A stretch of DNA of 64,000 bases from Escherichia coli. GTDB taxonomy: Bacteria; Pseudomonadota; Gammaproteobacteria; Enterobacterales; Enterobacteriaceae. The stretch lies in the NCBI RefSeq assembly GCF_044647545.1, contig NZ_CP172818.1, one strand, 5' to 3'. The position numbers were made by a program, and so were the translations under genes. The notes beneath the pieces were generated by a model. The model made no database searches. It was not told the origin of the DNA and worked only from the letters and a program-made list of their open reading frames with translations. This document shows positions 4,013 through 45,052 of this stretch, piece after piece; the first letter of the stretch is position 1; each line of letters begins with the position of its first letter.

Positions 4013-5594
4013 AAGGTTTCGGGTCGAAAATATCGGTTCCGAGATGGTTGTAATCTACCTTCTGTAACTGGAAGTTGGTGATGTATATCGGCCCGGCTTT
4101 CTTCTCAGATATAAACGGGTATTTGATGTTAATTTCCTTCGCTTTAATTCCCGTCCACTGGGAGAAAAAACCTAAGAAGTCATTGGCTGAGCGGCGGGCT
4201 TTAATCACCCGATGCGCTTTATCGTCGCTCGAAATGACCATAAAAGGCACCTGGAAATTCTGCTGATATTTATCATCATGGGCAAGGTATTGCACGTCTT
4301 TGCCGCGCTCTTTAAAGGCCAGACCGTGGTCAGAAAAGTAAACCAGCGAGAAGCTGCTGCCGCTGTTGCGTAACTGATCGTACAGCTTACGCAGTAAATC
4401 GTCCGTTTGCGTCATGGTATAGAGATAGCACGACGTTTCTTTCGATTGCACAAAGGTTTCGTATTTGCCTTGTGTCCGGTCGCAGGCCTGCGGATGTGAG
4501 CCCATCAGATGTAAAACAATCAGCTGCGGTTGCGAGTGCTCTTGCGCCAGCACTTGAGCGGTCATATCCAGTAACGCTTCGTCTTTCGTGTTTTTATCTG
4601 CTTCAAAATTACCTTCTTTCAGGAAGTACACTTCATCTGCACGTTTGGCGATGCTGGCGATAGCGGTATCGTATTCGCCGATTTGCCCCTGGTTGGAAAA
4701 CCACCAGGTCTGGAAGCCCGCGCGATTTGCCAGGGTGACAAAGTTATCCTGAAACTGTGGTTTGCCATCGACAACGCGATTGAGCGTTAAGCCAAGCGAT
4801 TTCTGCGTGGAGCCACTGGCGGCAATGTAGTCAGCAAATATCAAACCGTTAACGCTGCTGGCAAACGGGGTATTGTCCCAGTGACCGCCAAAGGCACCGA
4901 GGGCATCGCGACGCGCGCTTTCACCGATCACCACCACATAGGTCTGATACTTCGGCTTAACGGCAGTGACCGTCCAGGTATCTTTCATTCCGGAAAGTTT
5001 TGCCATCCGTTCTTGCTCTTCAATCACCTCGTTATTATTGACGATGACATCCTTAGCAAAACGAAATACCGGATAGCCAGTATCTTTCAGTTTAAATACG
5101 CCGCCCCAGGCCAGGTTTTGCACGGGAGCAACAAAAAATGTCGCCACACTGAATACCAGACACAGGCTGTCGAAGGTATTCCAGCGCGCTTTTTCATTCT
5201 CTTTTTTTCGCCTGATTGCTATTACGCCGAGCGCAAAAATAAATAAGCCGACCAGGTAGCTGTACCACGGAAAAATCGTCAGGATTTCGGTCGACTCTTC
5301 CATATTGGTGGAGTGCAATGCCAGCAATGTATTGAAATTAGGCGCGCCGTAGGCCTGAGCAAAAGGGAAATAACAAGCCGCCACCAGCGAACTGACACCG
5401 ACCAGAACTTTTTGTACGCGAGGCAATGTTCGCCATAGCAAAAGCAAAATAGCCGTAAACGCAGCGGTGTAGAGCAAACTGAAGGGATAACCTAAGCCGA
5501 GGTTAATTAATAGCGACTGTAAAAAGTAGAACGCAGTCCACGGGCTAAATACCCGGCTACGGGTAACAAGCGATTCTTTGAGGGTTAAATTCAT
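4011..5594 (-). CDS. opgE: Phosphoethanolamine transferase (OPG modification), sulfatase-like membrane enzyme
   Basis: 527-aa ORF with N-terminal TM segments and a C-terminal sulfatase/alkaline-phosphatase-like domain; position between ompX and mntR matches opgE (ybiP). Confidence 0.85.
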   Translation of the reverse strand: MNLTLKESLVTRSRVFSPWTAFYFLQSLLINLGLGYPFSLLYTAAFTAILLLLWRTLPRVQKVLVGVSSLVAACYFPFAQAYGAPNFNTLLALHSTNMEESTEILTIFPWYSYLVGLFIFALGVIAIRRKKENEKARWNTFDSLCLVFSVATFFVAPVQNLAWGGVFKLKDTGYPVFRFAKDVIVNNNEVIEEQERMAKLSGMKDTWTVTAVKPKYQTYVVVIGESARRDALGAFGGHWDNTPFASSVNGLIFADYIAASGSTQKSLGLTLNRVVDGKPQFQDNFVTLANRAGFQTWWFSNQGQIGEYDTAIASIAKRADEVYFLKEGNFEADKNTKDEALLDMTAQVLAQEHSQPQLIVLHLMGSHPQACDRTQGKYETFVQSKETSCYLYTMTQTDDLLRKLYDQLRNSGSSFSLVYFSDHGLAFKERGKDVQYLAHDDKYQQNFQVPFMVISSDDKAHRVIKARRSANDFLGFFSQWTGIKAKEINIKYPFISEKKAGPIYITNFQLQKVDYNHLGTDIFDPKP

Positions 5595-5865
5595 ATGCCA
5601 CTATCGTAACAAACGCCATGTGCTTACCCTGGCGTCAAGGGTCAATACCTGCAAGAGTGCGTGGAGAGGGGAAAGGGGTCCGCATCCGCGAGCCGCAATA
5701 TACGCAGGGCTGCAAGAAGATAGAGCGAGCCGCCGTTCAGGTCAACTACTGACGAACAAATCTTTTGCGAAGGGGATTGCAAATCCGACAAAAAGTGGGG
5801 TTTTTCAGACCAAAACGCGTTGTGCCTGCATAAAAGCAGGAGTGAAGCGGCGTACCGCGACGCCG

Positions 5866-5994
5866 CTATTTATCGGAAGGTTTATCTTGCTGCGGTTTGT
5901 TGTTGACCATATCGCACAACATAGAGAGCAGCATTAACCGTACTTTAAAGGGAGAATGACTAAACACGCGCATACACCTCTTGAACTCATTCAT
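5866..5994 (-). CDS. mntS: Small protein MntS (42 aa), manganese homeostasis; within the rybA locus
   Basis: Minus-strand ATG at 5994 translates to MNEFKRCMRVFSHSPFKVRLMLLSMLCDMVNNKPQQDKPSDK with a stop at 5868..5866; below the 60-aa cut-off of the ORF track; sits upstream of and divergent from mntR as in K-12. Confidence 0.8.
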   Translation of the reverse strand: MNEFKRCMRVFSHSPFKVRLMLLSMLCDMVNNKPQQDKPSDK

Positions 5995-6179
5995 AAGACC
6001 TCCTGACTTGCTAATCCCGTCGATCCTTGAGGGATGATTGCATTACATACAGATATAGCACAGGCTATATTATATAGCTATTGCTAAAACGTTAATTTTT
6101 TGTACCTTCGCAACTCTGGTTTACAATGTGCGCACGAAATGAGAACGCTATGTATGCGTCACCATAATGAGGAAGCACA

Positions 6180-6647
6180 ATGAGTCGTCGCGCAGGTACG
6201 CCAACAGCAAAAAAAGTGACGCAGTTAGTGAACGTGGAAGAGCACGTTGAAGGGTTCCGCCAGGTCAGAGAGGCGCATCGGCGCGAGCTTATTGATGATT
6301 ACGTTGAGCTGATTTCTGACTTGATCAGGGAAGTGGGGGAAGCTCGTCAGGTAGACATGGCTGCTCGTTTGGGAGTTTCGCAACCGACGGTGGCTAAAAT
6401 GCTTAAGCGACTGGCAACCATGGGGCTGATTGAAATGATCCCCTGGCGTGGCGTGTTTTTAACGGCAGAAGGAGAGAAGCTGGCGCAGGAAAGCCGCGAG
6501 CGACATCAGATAGTCGAAAATTTCTTGTTGGTGTTGGGCGTCAGTCCGGAAATCGCCCGTCGCGACGCGGAAGGCATGGAGCACCATGTTAGTGAAGAGA
6601 CGCTCGACGCTTTTCGTTTGTTTACCCAGAAACACGGTGCCAAATGA
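6180..6647 (+). CDS. mntR: Mn(II)-responsive transcriptional regulator (DtxR family)
   Basis: 155-aa ORF with a DtxR-type HTH ([17 protein letters not shown]); matches MntR. Confidence 0.95.
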
Positions 6648-7762
6648 GCCTGCCTTTTTTAAGCACGCTGCAAGGCGATCGTTTTTTTCAGTTATTAATT
6701 CTTGTTGGCATCGGATTAAGCTTTTTCGTTCCCTTTGCACCGAAATCCTGGCCTGCTGCTATCGACTGGCACACCATCATCACCTTAAGCGGCCTGATGC
6801 TGCTGACCAAAGGTGTCGAGTTAAGCGGTTATTTTGATGTGCTGGGGCGCAAAATGGTGCGCCGTTTTGCTACGGAGCGTCGGCTGGCGATGTTTATGGT
6901 ACTGGCGGCGGCGCTGCTTTCTACCTTTCTGACCAACGATGTCGCGCTGTTTATAGTTGTTCCGCTGACTATCACGCTAAAAAGACTGTGTGAGATCCCG
7001 GTTAATCGGCTGATTATTTTTGAGGCGCTGGCAGTCAACGCTGGTTCGCTACTGACGCCAATTGGCAACCCGCAAAATATTCTTATCTGGGGACGTTCTG
7101 GTCTTTCGTTTGCCGGATTTATTGCCCAAATGGCACCGCTGGCTGGCGCAATGATGCTGACACTCCTGCTGTTGTGCTGGTGTTGTTTCCCTGGAAAGGC
7201 GCTGCAATACCATACGGGGGCGCAAACGCCGGAGTGGAAACCGCGGCTGGTGTGGAGTTGTCTGGGGCTGTATATCGTTTTTCTGACGGCGCTGGAGTTC
7301 AAACAAGAGCTGTGGGGACTGGTGATTGTGGCGGCCGGCTTTGCGCTGCTGGCACGTTGCGTGGTGCTCAGTGTGGACTGGACGCTGCTGCTGGTGTTTA
7401 TGGCGATGTTTATCGACGTCCATTTACTGACCCAGCTTCCAGCGTTGCAAGGCGTGTTGGGTAACGTGAGTCATTTATCTGAACCCGGGTTATGGTTAAC
7501 GGCAATCGGTTTATCGCAGGTGATCAGTAATGTGCCGAGCACGATTTTGCTGCTCAATTATGTGCCACCGTCTTTATTATTGGCATGGGCGGTAAACGTA
7601 GGTGGCTTTGGTTTATTACCCGGATCGCTGGCAAATTTGATTGCGTTACGGATGGCGAACGATCGCCGTATCTGGTGGCGTTTTCATCTTTATTCGATAC
7701 CGATGCTGTTGTGGGCGGCGCTGGTGGGATACGTTTTATTCGTTATGCTCCCGGCCAACTAG
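6644..7762 (+). CDS. ybiR: Putative transporter (anion permease / ArsB-NhaD-like fold)
   Basis: 372-aa polytopic membrane ORF overlapping the mntR stop (ATGA); gene order matches ybiR. Confidence 0.85.
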
Positions 7763-10552: not shown

Positions 10553-10559
10553 CTGTTGA

Positions 10560-11202
10560 TCTCGTTTCCCAGATCCAGCAGCTGCTGAGGTTGTCATAAA
10601 ACAGGCCGAAGCTAAACGTCATTGCGGCGGGTGATGGCTAATGGAATGTGTTGTACAGCGGGTCAGTACTCACGGCGTTGTAGCCCATCGCGTCGAGGTT
10701 ACGCATCTCGTAACGTTTACCGTTGCGTTGCAGGTCGCCGGCTTTATCTCCGAGGCCATAAAAGCGTTCATCTTTACGACGGCTCTGATAGTGCGCCACA
10801 CCGTCACCGTGGGCATTCAGCAGATAAGCGCTGGTCGGTCGGTCATTCACTAACGGCAGCCATTTCGTCTTCGTTGTTACTATAGTGCCACTCCAGCCAC
10901 AGCGGCTGGTGAACGGTGGACCAGTGACTCGGTGGCGATAACCACGGCGTTGTTGTGCTGGTTCAGGTTCATGCGGGCAGGCCAGCCGCTGGACATTTTG
11001 CCGGCCGCGCCCTTCCCGATGGCACATCCTGCTGGAGCAATGCTCCAGGTGCGATCCAGCGCCAGCTCGCCTTTGCGTTTTAACAGCACGCGGAACAGAA
11101 TTCCAGCACGTACAGACGCAATACGCCCGCCATCGACCAGCAGTTCAACGTGGTGGGCAGACTGTTTGAGGTCCAGTTTTTCAGCGTTTCGACGTTGCAC
11201 AT
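10560..11202 (-). pseudogene. Remnant of a glycoside hydrolase family 31 gene (alpha-glucosidase/alpha-xylosidase-like): 5' portion only, frameshifted and truncated at the ybiT junction
   Basis: Minus-strand fragments carry GH31 N-terminal-region signatures (...LDLKQSAHHVELLVDGGRIASV...; ...ERFYGLGDKAGDLQRNGKRYEMRNLDAMGY...), spread over at least two frames, and only about 210 codons remain of a family that is normally about 700-800 aa. Confidence 0.55.
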
Positions 11203-11207
11203 CACTC

Positions 11208-12445
11208 TCAGGCGCGTTTTGCGCGACGTTCAGCAATAAAGGTGACCAGGAAGAAAGCGCCAATCAGGTCAAAGAAGCCCATGGCGATAAACAGGGCTTA
11301 AAGCCGATTTTGTCAGCAGTAACCCCGATAATCAGGGAGAAACAGGAAACTTGCTATCGACGCGGCAGAACCGCGCATGCCGTTACAGTGGCCATCTGAC
11401 CTTTGTCGAGGATTCCACTACTAATGCGCTAAGCATGCAGGAGATGATCTGGTCAACCGAAGCCGCCTATGGAAGATAAGGACGATGGCGATATGGGTTA
11501 TCCAGAAAGGCCATCACCGCCAGCGAAACCATCAGGAATGCGCCACTGACCGATCTATGCGCAATGGAGTTCACACTGACTCAGCCCAAACAGGCGGGTG
11601 TAAAGTTTGGTCAGATAGCCGCTGGCAATACTGCCAAGATCAGCGGCGAAGGAACGGCAACCAGGCGAAAGAGTGCGATCTGCTTCAGGTCGATGCCATA
11701 GGCATCTGGACAGGTATAGCGGAACCCAGAAACTCATCACCGCCCACGCCGGTTCTGCCATAAAGGCTGGGATAGTGATACCGTAAAAGCGTTTATTTTT
11801 GCCCACGGTTTTCAGTGCGGTCAGAAAGGGTAACTTGACCGGGGAGCTTCGTTATCCTGGCGGAGCAACCAGCTTGGCTTCGCTGAAGGTCAGGATGCTT
11901 ATCCGGGTTGCGATAAAACCCACCACAGCACCACCCACAGCATCGCCAGGATGCCAGTGGCATAAATGCGCCCTGCCAGCGAATGAAGCGTGGGCAAAAT
12001 AGATAATCGGTGGGGCCAGCATGGCACCGATGGAGTCTACGTCTGCCCAGCGGCGATCGGGCGTTGCGATTTTGGAAACCATTCACCTCATAGTTTTGGG
12101 GTTTGCCGGGGTGGCCGCGGCTTCCGCACCGCCCGATAAAGAAGCGCAACAGCGCCAGATGTACCCAGTTTCCCGCCCCCGCATGCATCAGACAGGCCAG
12201 CGCCCACAGCCCCTGTGCAGATCAGAAGCCCAGTTTGAGGCCAATGACGTCAATGAGCCACCGCATAACGGTTGAAATAGGGTATAGGCGAGTTGGAAAG
12301 CACCTACAATCCAGGAATATTGTTTTGTGCAATCCCCAGGCTGCTTTTCAACTCGGCGTACACCCAGCGAATTACGTGTGATGTAGTTGACAGTAACACC
12401 GAGCAAAAAAAGGACCAGCATCCACCAACGCAGATTTTTGAACAC
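11208..12445 (-). pseudogene. Decayed MFS transporter gene (N-terminus resembles ExuT/DgoT-type anion:cation symporters), multiple frameshifts
   Basis: ORF 12188..12445 begins MFKNLRWWMLVLFLLGVTVNYITRN (MFS N-terminal TM1 pattern); a C-terminal piece ...ALFIAMGFFDLIGAFFLVTFIAERRAKRA ends at a stop at 11210..11208; the body is broken into ORFs under 135 aa in different frames. Confidence 0.5.
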
Positions 12446-12769
12446 CGGCGTGGTTTACTGGCAGTCATATCAATCGATACCCACTGATATGCACTCCACA
12501 GAATGGTATAGGGGGGCGGCAACGTCAGACGGAGTTGTCACACCACTTTTAACCTTTTGATAAATAAAGTCTTTATTGTCTGTTTTTCCATTGTTCTTGT
12601 ACTGGAAGTTGTTGTCACATTTTTACAGTAAGAGACACTAAAAGCGAAAAAGAAAGCGGGTTTTGTGCACGTTTTTCCATGCGGCCCATACATTACTGAA
12701 ATGGATTTAATGCCAGACAGAATGGGCTTTTTTTGCTCATGAAAATTCTGTCATTTCCGAATTAGAGGA

Positions 12770-13800
12770 CATCAGAAATCGGCAAAGAGCTTAAATTGCC
12801 GATATCGCCGCACGTACCGGATTATCGCCGATACGGTTTCGCGGGTGCTGCTGGCAAAGCGAATACCAGTGCACGCGCTCGCGAACAGGCGCTGGCCTGC
12901 GCGTGAGTTGGGCGCGATGGATGGCATGGCAGCAGGTCATGTTGCTGAATACAACTCATCATTTTGCGCCGCAACGCGCGTTTGACCAACGATCTGATAT
13001 CTTTTATTACCTGGTGTGATCCAGCATCAGCAAAGCGTTATCGCCCGCATGAAGTGCGGCTGCGTTACTGCGTGTTAAGGTAGTTCTACAGCTGATCCCT
13101 GGCGTGATCTGGCGGCATGAATGAAGCAGATACGCAGGCGGCGATCCTGCTGGGGATCGACGATCCGCACATCCATGATCTGGCCGCCGATCGCTAAGCC
13201 TTGCGCTGATCGACTGCTGGTGATGAACGAATGCGCCTCCCGACGATTGCGCCGGACCATCGGTTAATCGGCGTGTCTGCCGCCCGCTATCTGTTTGAAA
13301 TGGGTCACCGGGAGGTGATGAACGTTATGTGCCTGCGCTCGGCCACACTATGGAGCAGCGGTTTGCAGGGATCAAAGAATCATGGCGTCAGCATAATCTG
13401 GCCTTTCACCATGACCGTCATTTGCTGAATATCAGCAGTTTTCTCAGCGCTAAAGAAGCGGAAGAAGGTCGGAGCGCGGCCTGATGCCGCCAATGGCAAT
13501 ACGTTGCCGACGGCGTTTCTGGTCGGCGGGGATTTTTATGGCGGCGGGAACGGTAAATGCGCTACATCGTCGTGGTCTGCGCGTACCACAGGATGTCTCG
13601 GTGATGAGTATCGATGGTCTTCAATCTTGCGGCAATCGAGGATGTTCCCGACGGCTGTGACGTGCCACGCGATCAGCTAAGGGTTAAGTGGTGCAAATGT
13701 TGCAACAGCGGCTGATTCGCCGGATGTCTGCGGTGGGCTCGCTGCTGCTGCACGGACGATTAGCGGTGCGGACGCGCGGCGGTTGCCCAGGAAAAGGGAA
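12770..13800 (+). pseudogene. Decayed LacI-family transcriptional regulator gene, multiple frameshifts
   Basis: HTH-like IADIAARTGLSP continues in another frame as DTVSRVLLAK...ARELG; the C-terminal region contains ...GLRVPQDVSVMSIDG..., typical of LacI/GalR effector domains, but split across frames with stops. Confidence 0.5.
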
Positions 13801-13833
13801 CACCGCCGTGGAACGGGAAGGGCTGTACGACAA

Positions 13834-15102
13834 TCATTCCATTCCCAGCGCTCGCTTACCGTGAATGTTGAGGTCGGCAAGCGTAAAGCGTCCTTCCCAG
13901 TTTGTTTCATAGTCCTCGCGCGGGAAGTCGCCCGGCGATGCGCCTTTTTCCAGTGCGGCCTTCACCTTGTGCGCGTAGGCAAGATTTTTCTCGCACATCG
14001 GTGCCGCAGGAATGTACATCACGTTGCCCCAACCCTGTTGATTTTCAACGGGGGCAACGGAATGGATGACGTCGCAGTGCCACCAGACGGAGTCTCCGGC
14101 TTCGAGTTGTGGAATGCTGGTTAATGCCTCAATCAACAGTGGATGCCATTGCTCTGATACCGGCAACACTCTTCCGGGCGCTACGCCGCACAGTTCATCC
14201 TCCGGCACATCATCAAGCAGCGGACGTAACAGCACGTACGCCATGGCTTCAGGAATGGGCACGACGTGCAGCAGTCCCTGACCAGGCAGCATATCAGAGA
14301 GCGCTGTCCAGCCCTGGAATGTCCGAAACACGGAACATTTGGTGGTGTTGTCCACCGTGTACTCTTCAACTTCTGTACGATGTGCCGCATGCCAGGGATC
14401 ATATTGCGCCAGATTGCCATTAAAGACGTTGGCGAAAACGCGCTGATACGCTGGAAGCAGCCAGCGTTCCAGTGCCCCGGAGTCGGTATGCGCTCCGAGA
14501 CCTTTGGAGGCCGTTCCGGGCGGACGGCGGCGGATACGGTCAGGGTAGATGACGCTCACATCCGGGTTAAACCATTGCTTTCCATCACTTTCAAATGTCC
14601 ACAGACGATTGAGAAACGACTGCGCATTCGCCATTTCTTCACTCTGGCGGGCCTGCATTTGCGCCTGCGACCAGTAGATGGGGTAAATCTCGGGACGTGA
14701 AGCGCTGAGCGTCCCGAAGAAATTATCGCCGGGGCCTTTGTAGACCTCATCAAAGCGGTTGCGGTCCAGATAGTCCAGCATCGACTGATCCCAGCCTAGC
14801 GCTTGTTCGCGGGGGAAATGGCCTTTTATCACCGCACAACCGCGACGTTTAATCTGTTCGCGTTGCTCTGCAGTAACATGACCTGCTTTGATATCGGCAT
14901 AAGACAGCACCGGCCAGACTGCATCGCCCTGTGCTTTGAGTGCGTTGATTTCAGCCACTCGCGTGGCAATGTCATCGCTTAGCTGATTAAAGATCTGCTG
15001 GACGTCGCCAAGCTGCGCCCGCAGCGCGTGCTTCATCTGACGGATAGCTGCTTTGTGATCGGCAGGCAATGTGTTGCTGGTAAAAGTAGAAGCCATAACC
15101 AC
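13834..15102 (-). CDS. ybiU: DUF1479 family protein
   Basis: 422-aa intact ORF matching YbiU; the true start may be a few codons inside (MASTFTS...). Confidence 0.9.
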   Translation of the reverse strand: MVMASTFTSNTLPADHKAAIRQMKHALRAQLGDVQQIFNQLSDDIATRVAEINALKAQGDAVWPVLSYADIKAGHVTAEQREQIKRRGCAVIKGHFPREQALGWDQSMLDYLDRNRFDEVYKGPGDNFFGTLSASRPEIYPIYWSQAQMQARQSEEMANAQSFLNRLWTFESDGKQWFNPDVSVIYPDRIRRRPPGTASKGLGAHTDSGALERWLLPAYQRVFANVFNGNLAQYDPWHAAHRTEVEEYTVDNTTKCSVFRTFQGWTALSDMLPGQGLLHVVPIPEAMAYVLLRPLLDDVPEDELCGVAPGRVLPVSEQWHPLLIEALTSIPQLEAGDSVWWHCDVIHSVAPVENQQGWGNVMYIPAAPMCEKNLAYAHKVKAALEKGASPGDFPREDYETNWEGRFTLADLNIHGKRALGME

Positions 15103-20339: not shown

Positions 20340-20491
20340 CCGGACGTTCTGCATCCTCATCAATTGCTGATAACGTTGTGGAGTGCACCAAGCTTCCGCG
20401 CCTGAAATTCGCCCGAACTAGGCAGATAAGGTTACGCCGATTGGGTCTGAGAAAATTATCTGCCGCGACTTATCAGGCCTGGGGCTGGCAG

Positions 20492-31445: not shown

Positions 31446-32774
31446 ATGTCCAGAATCAATAAGTTCGTACTTACAGTCAGTCTGCTGATTTTTATCATGA
31501 TTTCAGCAGTTGCCTGCGGGATCTACACTCAAATGGTAAAGGAACGGGTGTATGGCCTGAAACAGTCCGTTATTGATACTGCTTTTGCGGTGGCAAATAT
31601 TGCTGAATATCGGCGTAGTGTGGCAATTGATCTGATCAACACGCTAAATCCTACGGAGGAACAGCTGTTGGTTGGCTTACGCACAGCTTACGCCGACTCG
31701 CTTTCACCCTCTTATTTGTACGATGTCGGTCCTTATCTGATTTCCAGTGACGAATGTATTCAGGTAAAGGAGTTCGAGAAAAATTATTGTGCAGATATTA
31801 TGCAGGTTGTGAAGTATCGACATGTCAAAAATACAGGGTTTATCTCTTTTGATGGTAAAACCTTCGTCTATTACCTCTATCCGGTAACTCACAATCGTAG
31901 TCTGATATTTTTGCTTGGTCTGGAACGTTTTTCTTTACTGTCAAAATCGCTGGCGATGGATAGCGAGAACCTGATGTTCTCCCTGTTTAAGAACGGTAAA
32001 CCGGTGACCGGTGATGAATATAACGCTAAAAACGCCATCTTCACCGTTTCGGAAGCAATGGAGCACTTCTCCTATTTGCCGACCGGATTGTACGTATTTG
32101 CGTATAAAAAAGACGTTTATTTTCAGGTATGTACATTGATTATTTTCTTTGCCGCATTGGTGGCAGTGATATCGGGTGCCAGTTGCCTCTATCTGGTACG
32201 CAGAGTGATTAATCGTGGTATTGTGGAGAAAGAAGCCATTATTAATAACCATTTTGAACGCGTCCTGGATGGCGGGCTTTTCTTTTCGGCTGCCGATGTC
32301 AAAAAACTCTACAGTATGTATAACTCGGCATTCCTGGACGATCTGACCAAAGCAATGGGCAGAAAATCCTTTGATGAAGATTTAAAAGCCCTGCCGGAAA
32401 AAGGCGGCTATTTGTGCCTGTTTGACGTCGATAAATTCAAAAACATTAACGACACCTTCGGTCATTTGCTGGGCGATGAAGTGTTGATGAAAGTGGTGAA
32501 AATCCTTAAATCACAGATCCCGGTAGATAAAGGTAAAGTCTACCGCTTCGGCGGTGACGAATTTGCGGTGATTTATACTGGCGGCACGCTGGAAGAGTTG
32601 CTATCGATTCTAAAAGAAATCGTTCATTTCCAGGTGGGAAGCATTAATTTAAGTACCAGTATCGGTGTAGCGCATTCAAATGAATGTCCTACCGTCGAAC
32701 GCTTGAAAATGCTGGCGGATGAGCGGCTGTATAAGAGTAAGAAAAACGGCAGGGCACAGATTAGCTGGCAGTAA
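31446..32774 (+). CDS. dgcI: Membrane-anchored diguanylate cyclase (GGDEF domain)
   Basis: 442-aa ORF with a GGDEF active-site motif ([12 protein letters not shown]); matches YliF/DgcI. Confidence 0.9.
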
Positions 32775-32779
32775 TTAGA

Positions 32780-33700
32780 ATATTATACCCCTTAATCAAG
32801 GGTACTAATGAATTGGTAAATCATTTCAAACATTTTACTTTGCAAAAACTTCCGGCCCTTTTATTCCAATGTATTCAAAAAACGCAATGCCGGCCCCTTC
32901 TTTTTTTTTCTTTTCCTCCCCTTTTCTAAAACTTTTTTTTTTAAATTCCCTTTTGTTCCAAAACCGGGTGGATGCCCCGTCCGGCGGGCCTTTTTCTCTT
33001 CTCCCCCCTTTGTTTTTGTTTTGCTTATGGGCCGCACTCTCGGGTTTGTGACTTAAGGGGAAGGACAAACTTCCAAACAACAAACAGACCCACATTTCTT
33101 TCCTTTCTTTTCAATTTAATTTTTTTTTTTTTCTCCCAAAAAAAAAACAAATTCAAAAAAAATCTTTTTTTATTGCTAAAGGCCAGAAATGCATTTGCCA
33201 TTTTTTTGTAGGCCGCCAGTTCATCATCTTCGATTTCTTTGGTTCCTTTACTACTTAGACCACTCTTGGACCAACCATCATAAAAAAACACATGATTTGC
33301 TGATTTAAAAAAAATAATTTTTTTGCCTCCCCCTCTTTCTTTTTGAGGGGGAAATTTTTTTTAAGAACACCCCAACCTAAATCACCCTCCCATATGCCCT
33401 CCATCACTTCTCCAGCGCAAGCCATAAAAATTTTATATTAAAAACCAAGTTTTTTTTGTTTTGCGGAATCTTTCCCTTATACACACCCATACACCCATCT
33501 TTTGTTATTGTTTATATTATAAAAATTATTCTTTTTTAAAAAAAATTGAAAAAAAAAATTTATTTTGGAAAAAAAAAGGAGGGTTGCCCGAAGGTTTTTT
33601 TTTTTTTGATTTATGGGGGGGATTTTTGGGAAGGAAAGGAAAGGGGGGAGGGAAGGAGAGGAAGAAAAAAAAAAAATTAATTTAGATTTCTGCCTTAAGA
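32780..33700. other. Low-complexity, homopolymer-rich non-coding tract between convergent dgcI and rimO; origin unclear (possible assembly artefact or foreign/synthetic insert)
   Basis: Runs of at least 10 T, at least 10 A and 7 G, plus GA-rich and CT-rich blocks (e.g. ggaaggaaaggaaaggggggagggaaggagagg); only short Lys/Phe/Gly-rich ORFs; unlike the surrounding E. coli sequence. Confidence 0.6.
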
Positions 33701-44954: not shown

Positions 44955-44973
44955 TAGATAAATTTCAGGCAAC

Positions 44974-45052
44974 AAAAAACCCACCAACCTTGAACCGAAA
45001 TGGCGGGGTTGATGGGCTCCACAAAATGGGGACATCAAAGAAAAGCAGTGGC
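44974..45052 (-). ncRNA. rybB: RybB small RNA (sigmaE-dependent, Hfq-binding; represses outer membrane protein mRNAs)
   Basis: The reverse complement reads gccactgcttttctttgatgtccccattttgtggagcccatcaaccccgccatttcggttcaaggttggtgggtttttt, matching RybB as I recall it, including the terminator hairpin and U-tail; located between rcdA and ybjL as in K-12. Confidence 0.85.

Follow-up and report, generated by a model that had tools for sequence, protein, structure and literature searches.

Identity, coding constraint and promoter architecture of mntS, a 42-codon gene divergent from mntR in Escherichia coli

Several enterobacterial membrane transporters are modulated by small proteins, examples being MgtS and MgtR (MgtA/PitA), AcrZ (AcrB) and KdpF (KdpABC). 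MntS resembles these modulators in being shorter than 50 amino acids, in being induced by stress and in binding a larger membrane transporter while having no catalytic function. It differs from them in its unrelated sequence, in being described as largely soluble, in acting as the inhibitor of an exporter and in its unusual origin from a signal peptide.

Repression of mntS by manganese-bound MntR is published, and manganese represses a PmntS-egfp reporter only in cells that have MntR (PMC9806134). Overproduction of MntS increases the Mn content of the cell and mimics the loss of MntP, an effect that is abolished by frameshift alleles at F11 or F16 and is independent of Hfq, which identifies the MntS protein as the active agent; a tagged form of the protein has also been detected (Martin et al., PMC4361602). 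The Mn sensitivity caused by MntS is lost when mntP is swapped for the unrelated exporter mneA, binding between the K-12 proteins MntS and MntP is seen both by two-hybrid and by reciprocal pull-down, and MntS associates with itself only at high Mn (Wright et al., bioRxiv 10.1101/2023.06.02.543501). According to the same preprint, all genomes with MntS also have MntP, and the proposed ancestor of MntS is a SitA signal peptide encoded in an operon that stood beside mntR as its partner (bioRxiv 10.1101/2023.06.02.543501). At the transcript level, seven RNAs that share a 5′ end and measure 205 to about 400 nt have been described (PMC4361602).

The DNA analysed here, referred to as the window, is a 64,000-nucleotide stretch of the chromosome of a non-K-12 E. 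coli strain. A sequence-only reading had placed at positions 5866-5994 a minus-strand ORF of 42 codons, opened by an ATG at 5994, and had taken its product for MntS. The plus strand indeed reads CAT at 5992-5994, and translation of the window from there gives MNEFKRCMRVFSHSPFKVRLMLLSMLCDMVNNKPQQDKPSDK followed by TAG at 5868-5866, so that coordinates, strand and peptide all proved exact. The same reading had proposed a compact manganese-homeostasis unit formed with mntR on the other strand, and had named a database match of the peptide and an MntR operator upstream as the points to be checked; both were found, as set out below. The features of the locus are collected in Table 1.

Table 1. Features of the mntS-mntR locus (window positions)
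Feature	Position	Strand	Description and basis
mntS CDS	5866..5994	-	42 codons + TAG stop; translation, NCBIfam, RefSeq, pN/pS
Shine-Dalgarno AGGAGG	6000..6005	-	5-nt spacer to ATG; 5/6 columns invariant (8 genera)
RybA/mntS transcript	5722..6061	-	rybA b4416 transferred from K-12 by collinear offset; 67-nt leader + ORF + 3′ region
GC-rich hairpin AGCGGCGU-6-ACGCCGCU	5846..5867	-	Overlaps stop codon; -13.8 kcal/mol, z=-2.1
Leader block ATCTGTATGTAATGC	6040..6054	-	RybA +8..+22, directly downstream of O1, outside both MntR palindromes
mntS -35 element TTAACG	6090..6095	-	17-nt spacer to TAATAT; 100% invariant (8 genera)
mntS -10 element TAATAT	6072..6067	-	Overlaps perfect TATAAT 6074..6069; between both operators; Python scan
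Putative MntR operator O1	6055-6068		Perfect palindrome ATAGCACAGGCTAT; spans transcription start; 13/14 columns invariant
Putative MntR operator O2	6074-6087		ATAGCTATTGCTAA, one mismatch; between -35 and -10; 12/14 columns invariant
Candidate mntR promoter TTGTAC-16-TACAAT	6100..6127	+	Consensus scan only; back-to-back with mntS -35
mntR	6180..6647	+	Mn(II)-responsive DtxR-family regulator; NF008273 269.1 bits (cutoff 153); RefSeq
ybiR	6644..7762	+	CitMHS-family putative anion transporter; start overlaps mntR stop by 4 nt

The length of the ORF carries little weight. In 5.5 kb there are 56 ORFs of at least 30 aa, so a length of 42 codons is insignificant alone and the case for a gene rests on other evidence. 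The peptide matches the NCBIfam profile NF033226 (small_MntS) with 96 bits against a cutoff of 36 (E=6.3e-28), residues 1-39 aligning to profile positions 1-40 out of 41. Homologues retrieved from 5.8 billion proteins form 136 clusters, from Escherichia/Shigella, Salmonella, Citrobacter, Klebsiella, Enterobacter, Kosakonia, Kluyvera, Trabulsiella and relatives, and every cluster named by its source is called MntS; together with the equivalog match, this bears out the assignment of the peptide. A local Pfam-A scan of the peptide returned no family, while PF26599 (MntS) is listed for homologues and contigs in precomputed tables, a discrepancy that probably reflects the library version or the threshold of a short model and not biology.

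The genomic record is equally consistent. The 1.1 kb between 5600 and 6700 has an exact (100%) counterpart on many RefSeq chromosomes of E. coli annotated with mntS, mntR and ybiR, and on such nucleotide-identical chromosomes RefSeq/PGAP annotates mntS at exactly the same coordinates. Similar sequence to this segment occurs in 5421 of 5426 complete E. coli genomes. In K-12 MG1655 the counterpart is mntS b4705, lying within the ncRNA rybA b4416 (852725..853064). Compared with K-12, the rybA span of the window differs at only two bases of the 3′ region, 5822 and 5832, and hence the ORF, the leader, the promoter and both operators are identical. The neighbours are also the same, namely ompX, opgE, mntS, mntR, ybiR, ldtB and ybiT. 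Nothing of substance separates the mntS locus of this strain from that of K-12.

Coding constraint was assessed by aligning the window with orthologous DNA from seven other lineages, giving eight genera in all. Over the first 36 codons, variable sites fall at codon positions 1, 2 and 3 in the numbers 16, 6 and 28, and pN/pS relative to E. coli ranges from 0.11 to 0.25 across the genera. The mntS ORF is thus under purifying selection. The predominance of silent changes reported earlier for mntS (PMC4361602) is reproduced by the present alignment. On the opposite strand, a 119-aa ORF at 5578-5937(+) was considered and rejected: it is annotated nowhere, and the substitutions follow the mntS frame.

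At the protein level, a 20-sequence alignment shows residues 1-22 to be nearly invariant and the C-terminal tail to vary in both sequence and length. The residues that are invariant throughout are M1, N2, E3, K5, R6, C7, V10, F11, H13, S14, P15, F16, V18, R19, L20, L22, K33 and P34. The peptide displays the hallmarks of MntS, that is, an N-terminal MNEFKRC, the SHSPF (PF) motif, a VRLML helix and a length of about 40-45 residues, and an AXA signal-peptidase site is absent from it; the PF motif and the loss of AXA are the features by which Wright et al. recognise MntS (bioRxiv 10.1101/2023.06.02.543501). With the alignment as input, AlphaFold2 gives a model of mean pLDDT 78 that has helices at residues 2-13 and 16-31, a break at S14-P15 and a disordered tail, in agreement with the bihelical, Pro15-kinked model of the 2023 preprint (bioRxiv 10.1101/2023.06.02.543501).

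The 5′ end of the transcript at 6061 is taken from the K-12 annotation, and the TTAACG-17-TAATAT promoter was identified by a relaxed scan combined with that 5′ end, the built-in promoter scan having made no call for mntS. Its -10 element precedes the annotated 5′ end of RybA by 6 nt, and orthologues carry TAAAAT or TATAAT at this position. The upstream operator sought by the sequence-only reading takes the form of two palindromes of the type ATAGC-N4-GCTAT over the core promoter, with centres 19 bp apart, bracketing the -10. In the 64-kb window as a whole this pattern, allowing at most one mismatch, has 6 matches against 1.67 expected by chance. Elsewhere in the K-12 genome, mntH has a perfect copy of the palindrome 17 bp upstream of its start codon, and mntP has one perfect and one one-mismatch copy upstream of its leader, where chance would provide about 0.15 matches per locus.

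Conservation of this segment is concentrated where these elements lie. Across the eight genera the block 6105-6041 is 82% invariant, compared with 22-26% in the remaining intergenic DNA, and within it the -35 reaches 100%, O1 93% and O2 86%. A perfect O1 together with an O2 exactly 19 bp upstream was present in all of the 12 related loci examined, and a search of those loci, 5-8 kb each, revealed no further palindromes with up to one mismatch. At the level of sequence, the mntS promoter belongs among those with MntR operators. Binding of O1 and O2 by MntR itself is likely, judging from these motifs and from secondary citations, and their geometry points to repression by promoter occlusion.

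Combined with the published work, these elements suggest the following sequence of events. At high cytoplasmic Mn(II), Mn-loaded MntR dimers would occupy O1 and O2; lying over the -10 and the transcription start, they would exclude RNA polymerase, presumably by steric occlusion, and switch mntS off. When Mn is scarce, MntR would leave the DNA, and the leader with its strong AGGAGG would be translated to yield the two-helix, 42-residue MntS. The small protein would then bind the inner-membrane Mn exporter MntP and block export, conserving the Mn that is imported by MntH. On a return to high Mn, self-association of MntS is proposed to free MntP, alongside repression of mntS. Within this scheme, MntR-dependent repression, the protein-level phenotype and the binding of MntS to MntP are taken from the literature.

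The regulator gene lies divergently on the plus strand, as the sequence-only reading had it, 185 bp from the mntS ATG. Besides the NF008273 match of Table 1, its product contains the domains PF01325 (Fe_dep_repress) and PF02742 (Fe_dep_repr_C), which together place it in the MntR family. The candidate mntR promoter has conserved GCACAA and CATTGTAA motifs, and 6139-6168 is an alternative to it. Downstream, the 4-nt overlap between the mntR stop and the ybiR start makes co-transcription of the two genes probable, and 7 orthologous loci likewise have mntR paired with ybiR. The divergent pairing of mntS with mntR recurs in each of the 10 independent contexts examined, also where the flanking genes differ, so that the proposal of a compact manganese-homeostasis unit holds. 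The gene for the exporter, mntP, is not within the window and is present in K-12.

The relation of MntS to SitA can be followed in the same material. MntS and SitA signal peptides share the core FSHSPF-x-(V/L)RLML, a similar length, a divergent mntR and the O1/O2 pair. The window's MntS departs from SitA signal peptides in having no AXA site and a more polar second helix (…CDMVNNKPQQDKPSDK). Compared with a SitA pre-protein, it stops after 42 codons and is followed by opgE with no binding-protein domain downstream, which sets it apart from SitA itself. At E<=0.001, the 34 hits of a single-pass profile search of 1.84 billion representatives were all small proteins or fragments, with no full-length SitA among them. 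Since full-length SitA was not reached in this way, the homology rests on the iterative searches of the published study and on the context of one distant locus, L014.

In L014 a hit to MntS (P0145, MENGRHILKLFSHSPFRLRLMLVGMIVALITGNAQAADQ…) lies directly 5′ of an ORF of the ZnuA/SitA family, an ABC ATPase and two permeases. Genes resembling sitBCD follow it, as expected of a SitA signal peptide; in addition, an mntR homologue is divergent and the same O1/O2 pair is present. The MntS-like ORF of 50 aa (…FSHSPFRLRLMLVGMIVALITGNAQA/AD…) reads through a frameshift in an A-run into the mature SitA/ZnuA-family protein. On the contig itself, which is metagenome-derived (Logan SRR18067521; L014:1859-2811), the 50-aa ORF and a 267-aa ZnuA/SitA ORF overlap by 4 nt, with the junction …SKEKK/KFKVVTTF…. 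Either an assembly error has split a SitA pre-protein whose signal peptide resembles MntS, or the arrangement is a natural intermediate in the emergence of mntS. The locus independently supports the published model of a SitA origin. Furthermore, the divergent mntR and the operators accompany two other distant MntS-like genes whose surroundings are otherwise unrelated, which shows the mntS-mntR-operator unit to be the conserved module.

The RybA transcript has features of its own at both ends. At the 3′ side, 7 of 8 genera conserve the hairpin that overlaps the stop codon; after it comes a U-rich UUCAUUUU in the genera other than E. coli and UUCACUCC in E. coli, where a terminator scan called no canonical intrinsic terminator at this site. 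The shortest transcript (~205-220 nt) probably ends or is terminated at this hairpin. Further downstream, a conserved promoter-like element, TTGACC-17-TATCTT, occupies 5745-5717(-) upstream of opgE and is most simply taken as the opgE promoter. The annotated 3′ end of the 340-nt RybA (5722) falls inside this element, so that the longer mntS transcripts would extend into the opgE promoter or past it.

At the 5′ side, the leader block ATCTGTATGTAATGC is invariant or nearly so in the eight genera, unlike the rest of the leader, which drifts; it is only partly kept at sitA-linked loci and absent at the most distant locus. Downstream of it, RNAalifold finds a weak 5-bp leader hairpin (-2.9 kcal/mol) with 2 compensatory pairs. 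A Fur box was considered as the reason for the invariance of the block and rejected, no match being found at up to 3 mismatches and no link to Fur appearing in PMC4676285.

A rival account is that the locus acts mainly, or additionally, through RybA as a regulatory sRNA with the ORF secondary, for example on aromatic amino-acid genes under peroxide stress. The K-12 annotation does draw a 340-nt ncRNA across the locus, and repression of aroF/aroL by RybA, independent of Hfq and dependent on TyrR, was reported by Gerstle et al. 2012, as cited in PMC11878033. Martin et al. also regard an sRNA role in other contexts as compatible with their data (PMC4361602), and the first ~22 nt of RybA are invariant across genera, as is typical of sRNA seed regions. 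This invariant 5′ end, however, overlaps the DNA operator, so that part of its conservation is already accounted for. The 340-nt span shows no excess of folding over shuffled sequence (z=0.07), and Rfam, searched at a permissive E-value over the locus and at gathering thresholds over the whole window, gave no RybA family and at the locus only a chance snoRNA match (E=0.61). Conservation of the ORF follows the codon pattern measured by the pN/pS values above, the 3′ region past the hairpin is only 12% invariant among the eight genera, and the Mn phenotype is Hfq-independent and abolished by frameshifts (PMC4361602). Nothing computed here supports an RNA-level role of RybA, and this account of the locus appears unlikely. 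That RybA is instead a dual-function RNA, whose 5′ end at 6061-6040, and especially ATCTGTATGTAATGC, serves as a base-pairing seed or post-transcriptional element besides encoding MntS, seems decidedly doubtful; the conservation of ATCTGTATGTAATGC could come equally from extended MntR contacts or from constraints on the initially transcribed region.

Granted an active protein, its mode of action might still be other than inhibition of MntP. In the original proposal MntS was a cytoplasmic manganese chaperone delivering Mn to enzymes, and it helps to activate Mn-dependent enzymes under Mn scarcity (PMC4361602). Potential metal ligands are available in E3, C7 and H13, all invariant, and in the largely conserved C27 and D28, and self-association of MntS requires Mn (bioRxiv 10.1101/2023.06.02.543501). 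Set against this, the overproduction phenotype vanishes once an unrelated exporter replaces MntP, MntS binds MntP directly, and improved metallation of enzymes is explained by the raised cellular Mn. The chaperone role has, moreover, been tested and disfavoured in the literature (PMC4361602) and is very improbable. The last reading to be weighed is that the ORF is a chance frame, or a relic of a sitA signal-peptide exon, from which no functional protein is expressed. It could draw on the shortness of the ORF, many of this size arising by chance, and on the evolutionary derivation from the SitA signal peptide. It is contradicted by the strong purifying selection, by the nearly invariant Shine-Dalgarno sequence, by retention of the gene in all but five of the E. 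coli genomes counted above, by the match to a curated equivalog HMM, and by the published detection of a tagged protein and of a protein-dependent phenotype (PMC4361602). The conservation statistics and the published detection of the protein effectively refute it, leaving it hardly any probability.

It is thus almost certain that 5866-5994(-) is mntS, carried on the RybA transcript, that 6180-6647(+) is the repressor gene mntR, and that the two serve the Mn-dependent inhibition of MntP described above; no finding speaks against this account. The identity of the gene, its coding constraint, the architecture and conservation of its promoter and operators and its synteny are matters of observation.

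Other parts of the window were compared by BLAST with NZ_CP033850.1, with an offset and indels between the two sequences. The first 10.5 kb of the window equal strain FDAARGOS_497 save for one 1-bp gap. In this part, a 1-bp deletion within an A/T run at ~1828 interrupts dps, which occupies about 1405-1908 on the minus strand; the N-terminal part meets a stop and the remainder forms a separate 136-aa ORF. The split allele is 100% identical over 141 bp in at least 5 complete genomes and is either a real, recurrent frameshift or a homopolymer sequencing error shared among them.

Between ybiT and ybiU, 10553-13840 contains a decayed accessory islet with a GH31 glycosidase, an MFS transporter and a LacI regulator. 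About 1.9 kb of the GH31 gene is missing, and what remains of the islet matches the best carriers listed at 92.2% identity; the 577 complete E. coli genomes with the GH31 islet all lie in the 90-95% identity band. It has accumulated 127 substitutions and about 100 mostly 1-bp indels, and a single ORF of 150 aa or more survives. Against the same genomes the flanking core genes show 100% identity, and the boundaries of the block coincide with the ends of core genes. A second such block, at 32774-33687 between dgcI and rimO, holds a decayed RelE/ParE toxin and HTH antitoxin module whose best-matching records are about 83-85% identical; relative to FDAARGOS_497 it has 93 substitutions and 36 small indels in 914 bp, with intact core genes exactly at its bounds. 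In the intergenic region between fsa and moeB, a 66-bp patch (20396-20461) shows 18 small deletions and 1 substitution relative to FDAARGOS_497 and is probably a variable repeat or intergenic element. Taking all altered blocks together, 44% of the substitutions are transitions and few indels lie in homopolymers, a pattern that looks like neither ordinary polymorphism nor typical sequencing error.

Towards the far end, the sRNA RybB is found at full length at 44971-45049(-) (RF00110, 104 bits, gathering score 40), the only Rfam match at gathering threshold in the window; no tRNA genes were found in the window. FDAARGOS_497 carries a P2-like prophage adjoining rcdA, with an integrase, DUF4041, CI, a DUF262 cargo gene, portal and terminase. 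Past about 44984 the window has no match to this prophage stretch and continues with other strains at 100% identity and 98% coverage, in 2 pieces, through ybjL, potFG, rlmC and their neighbours.

Nothing at the mntS locus is new: publications and RefSeq annotation already cover mntS/rybA and mntR, the MntR operators and the mechanism by which MntS acts on MntP. The mntS call serves as a quality control, a functional 42-codon gene below the threshold of the ORF track having been recognised from the letters of the DNA. The comparative analysis arrives independently at three published claims, on the constraint of the coding sequence, the arrangement of the operators and the connection with the SitA signal peptide. 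MntS provides a good teaching example both of the control of a membrane transporter by a small protein and of the birth of a gene from the remnant of a signal peptide.
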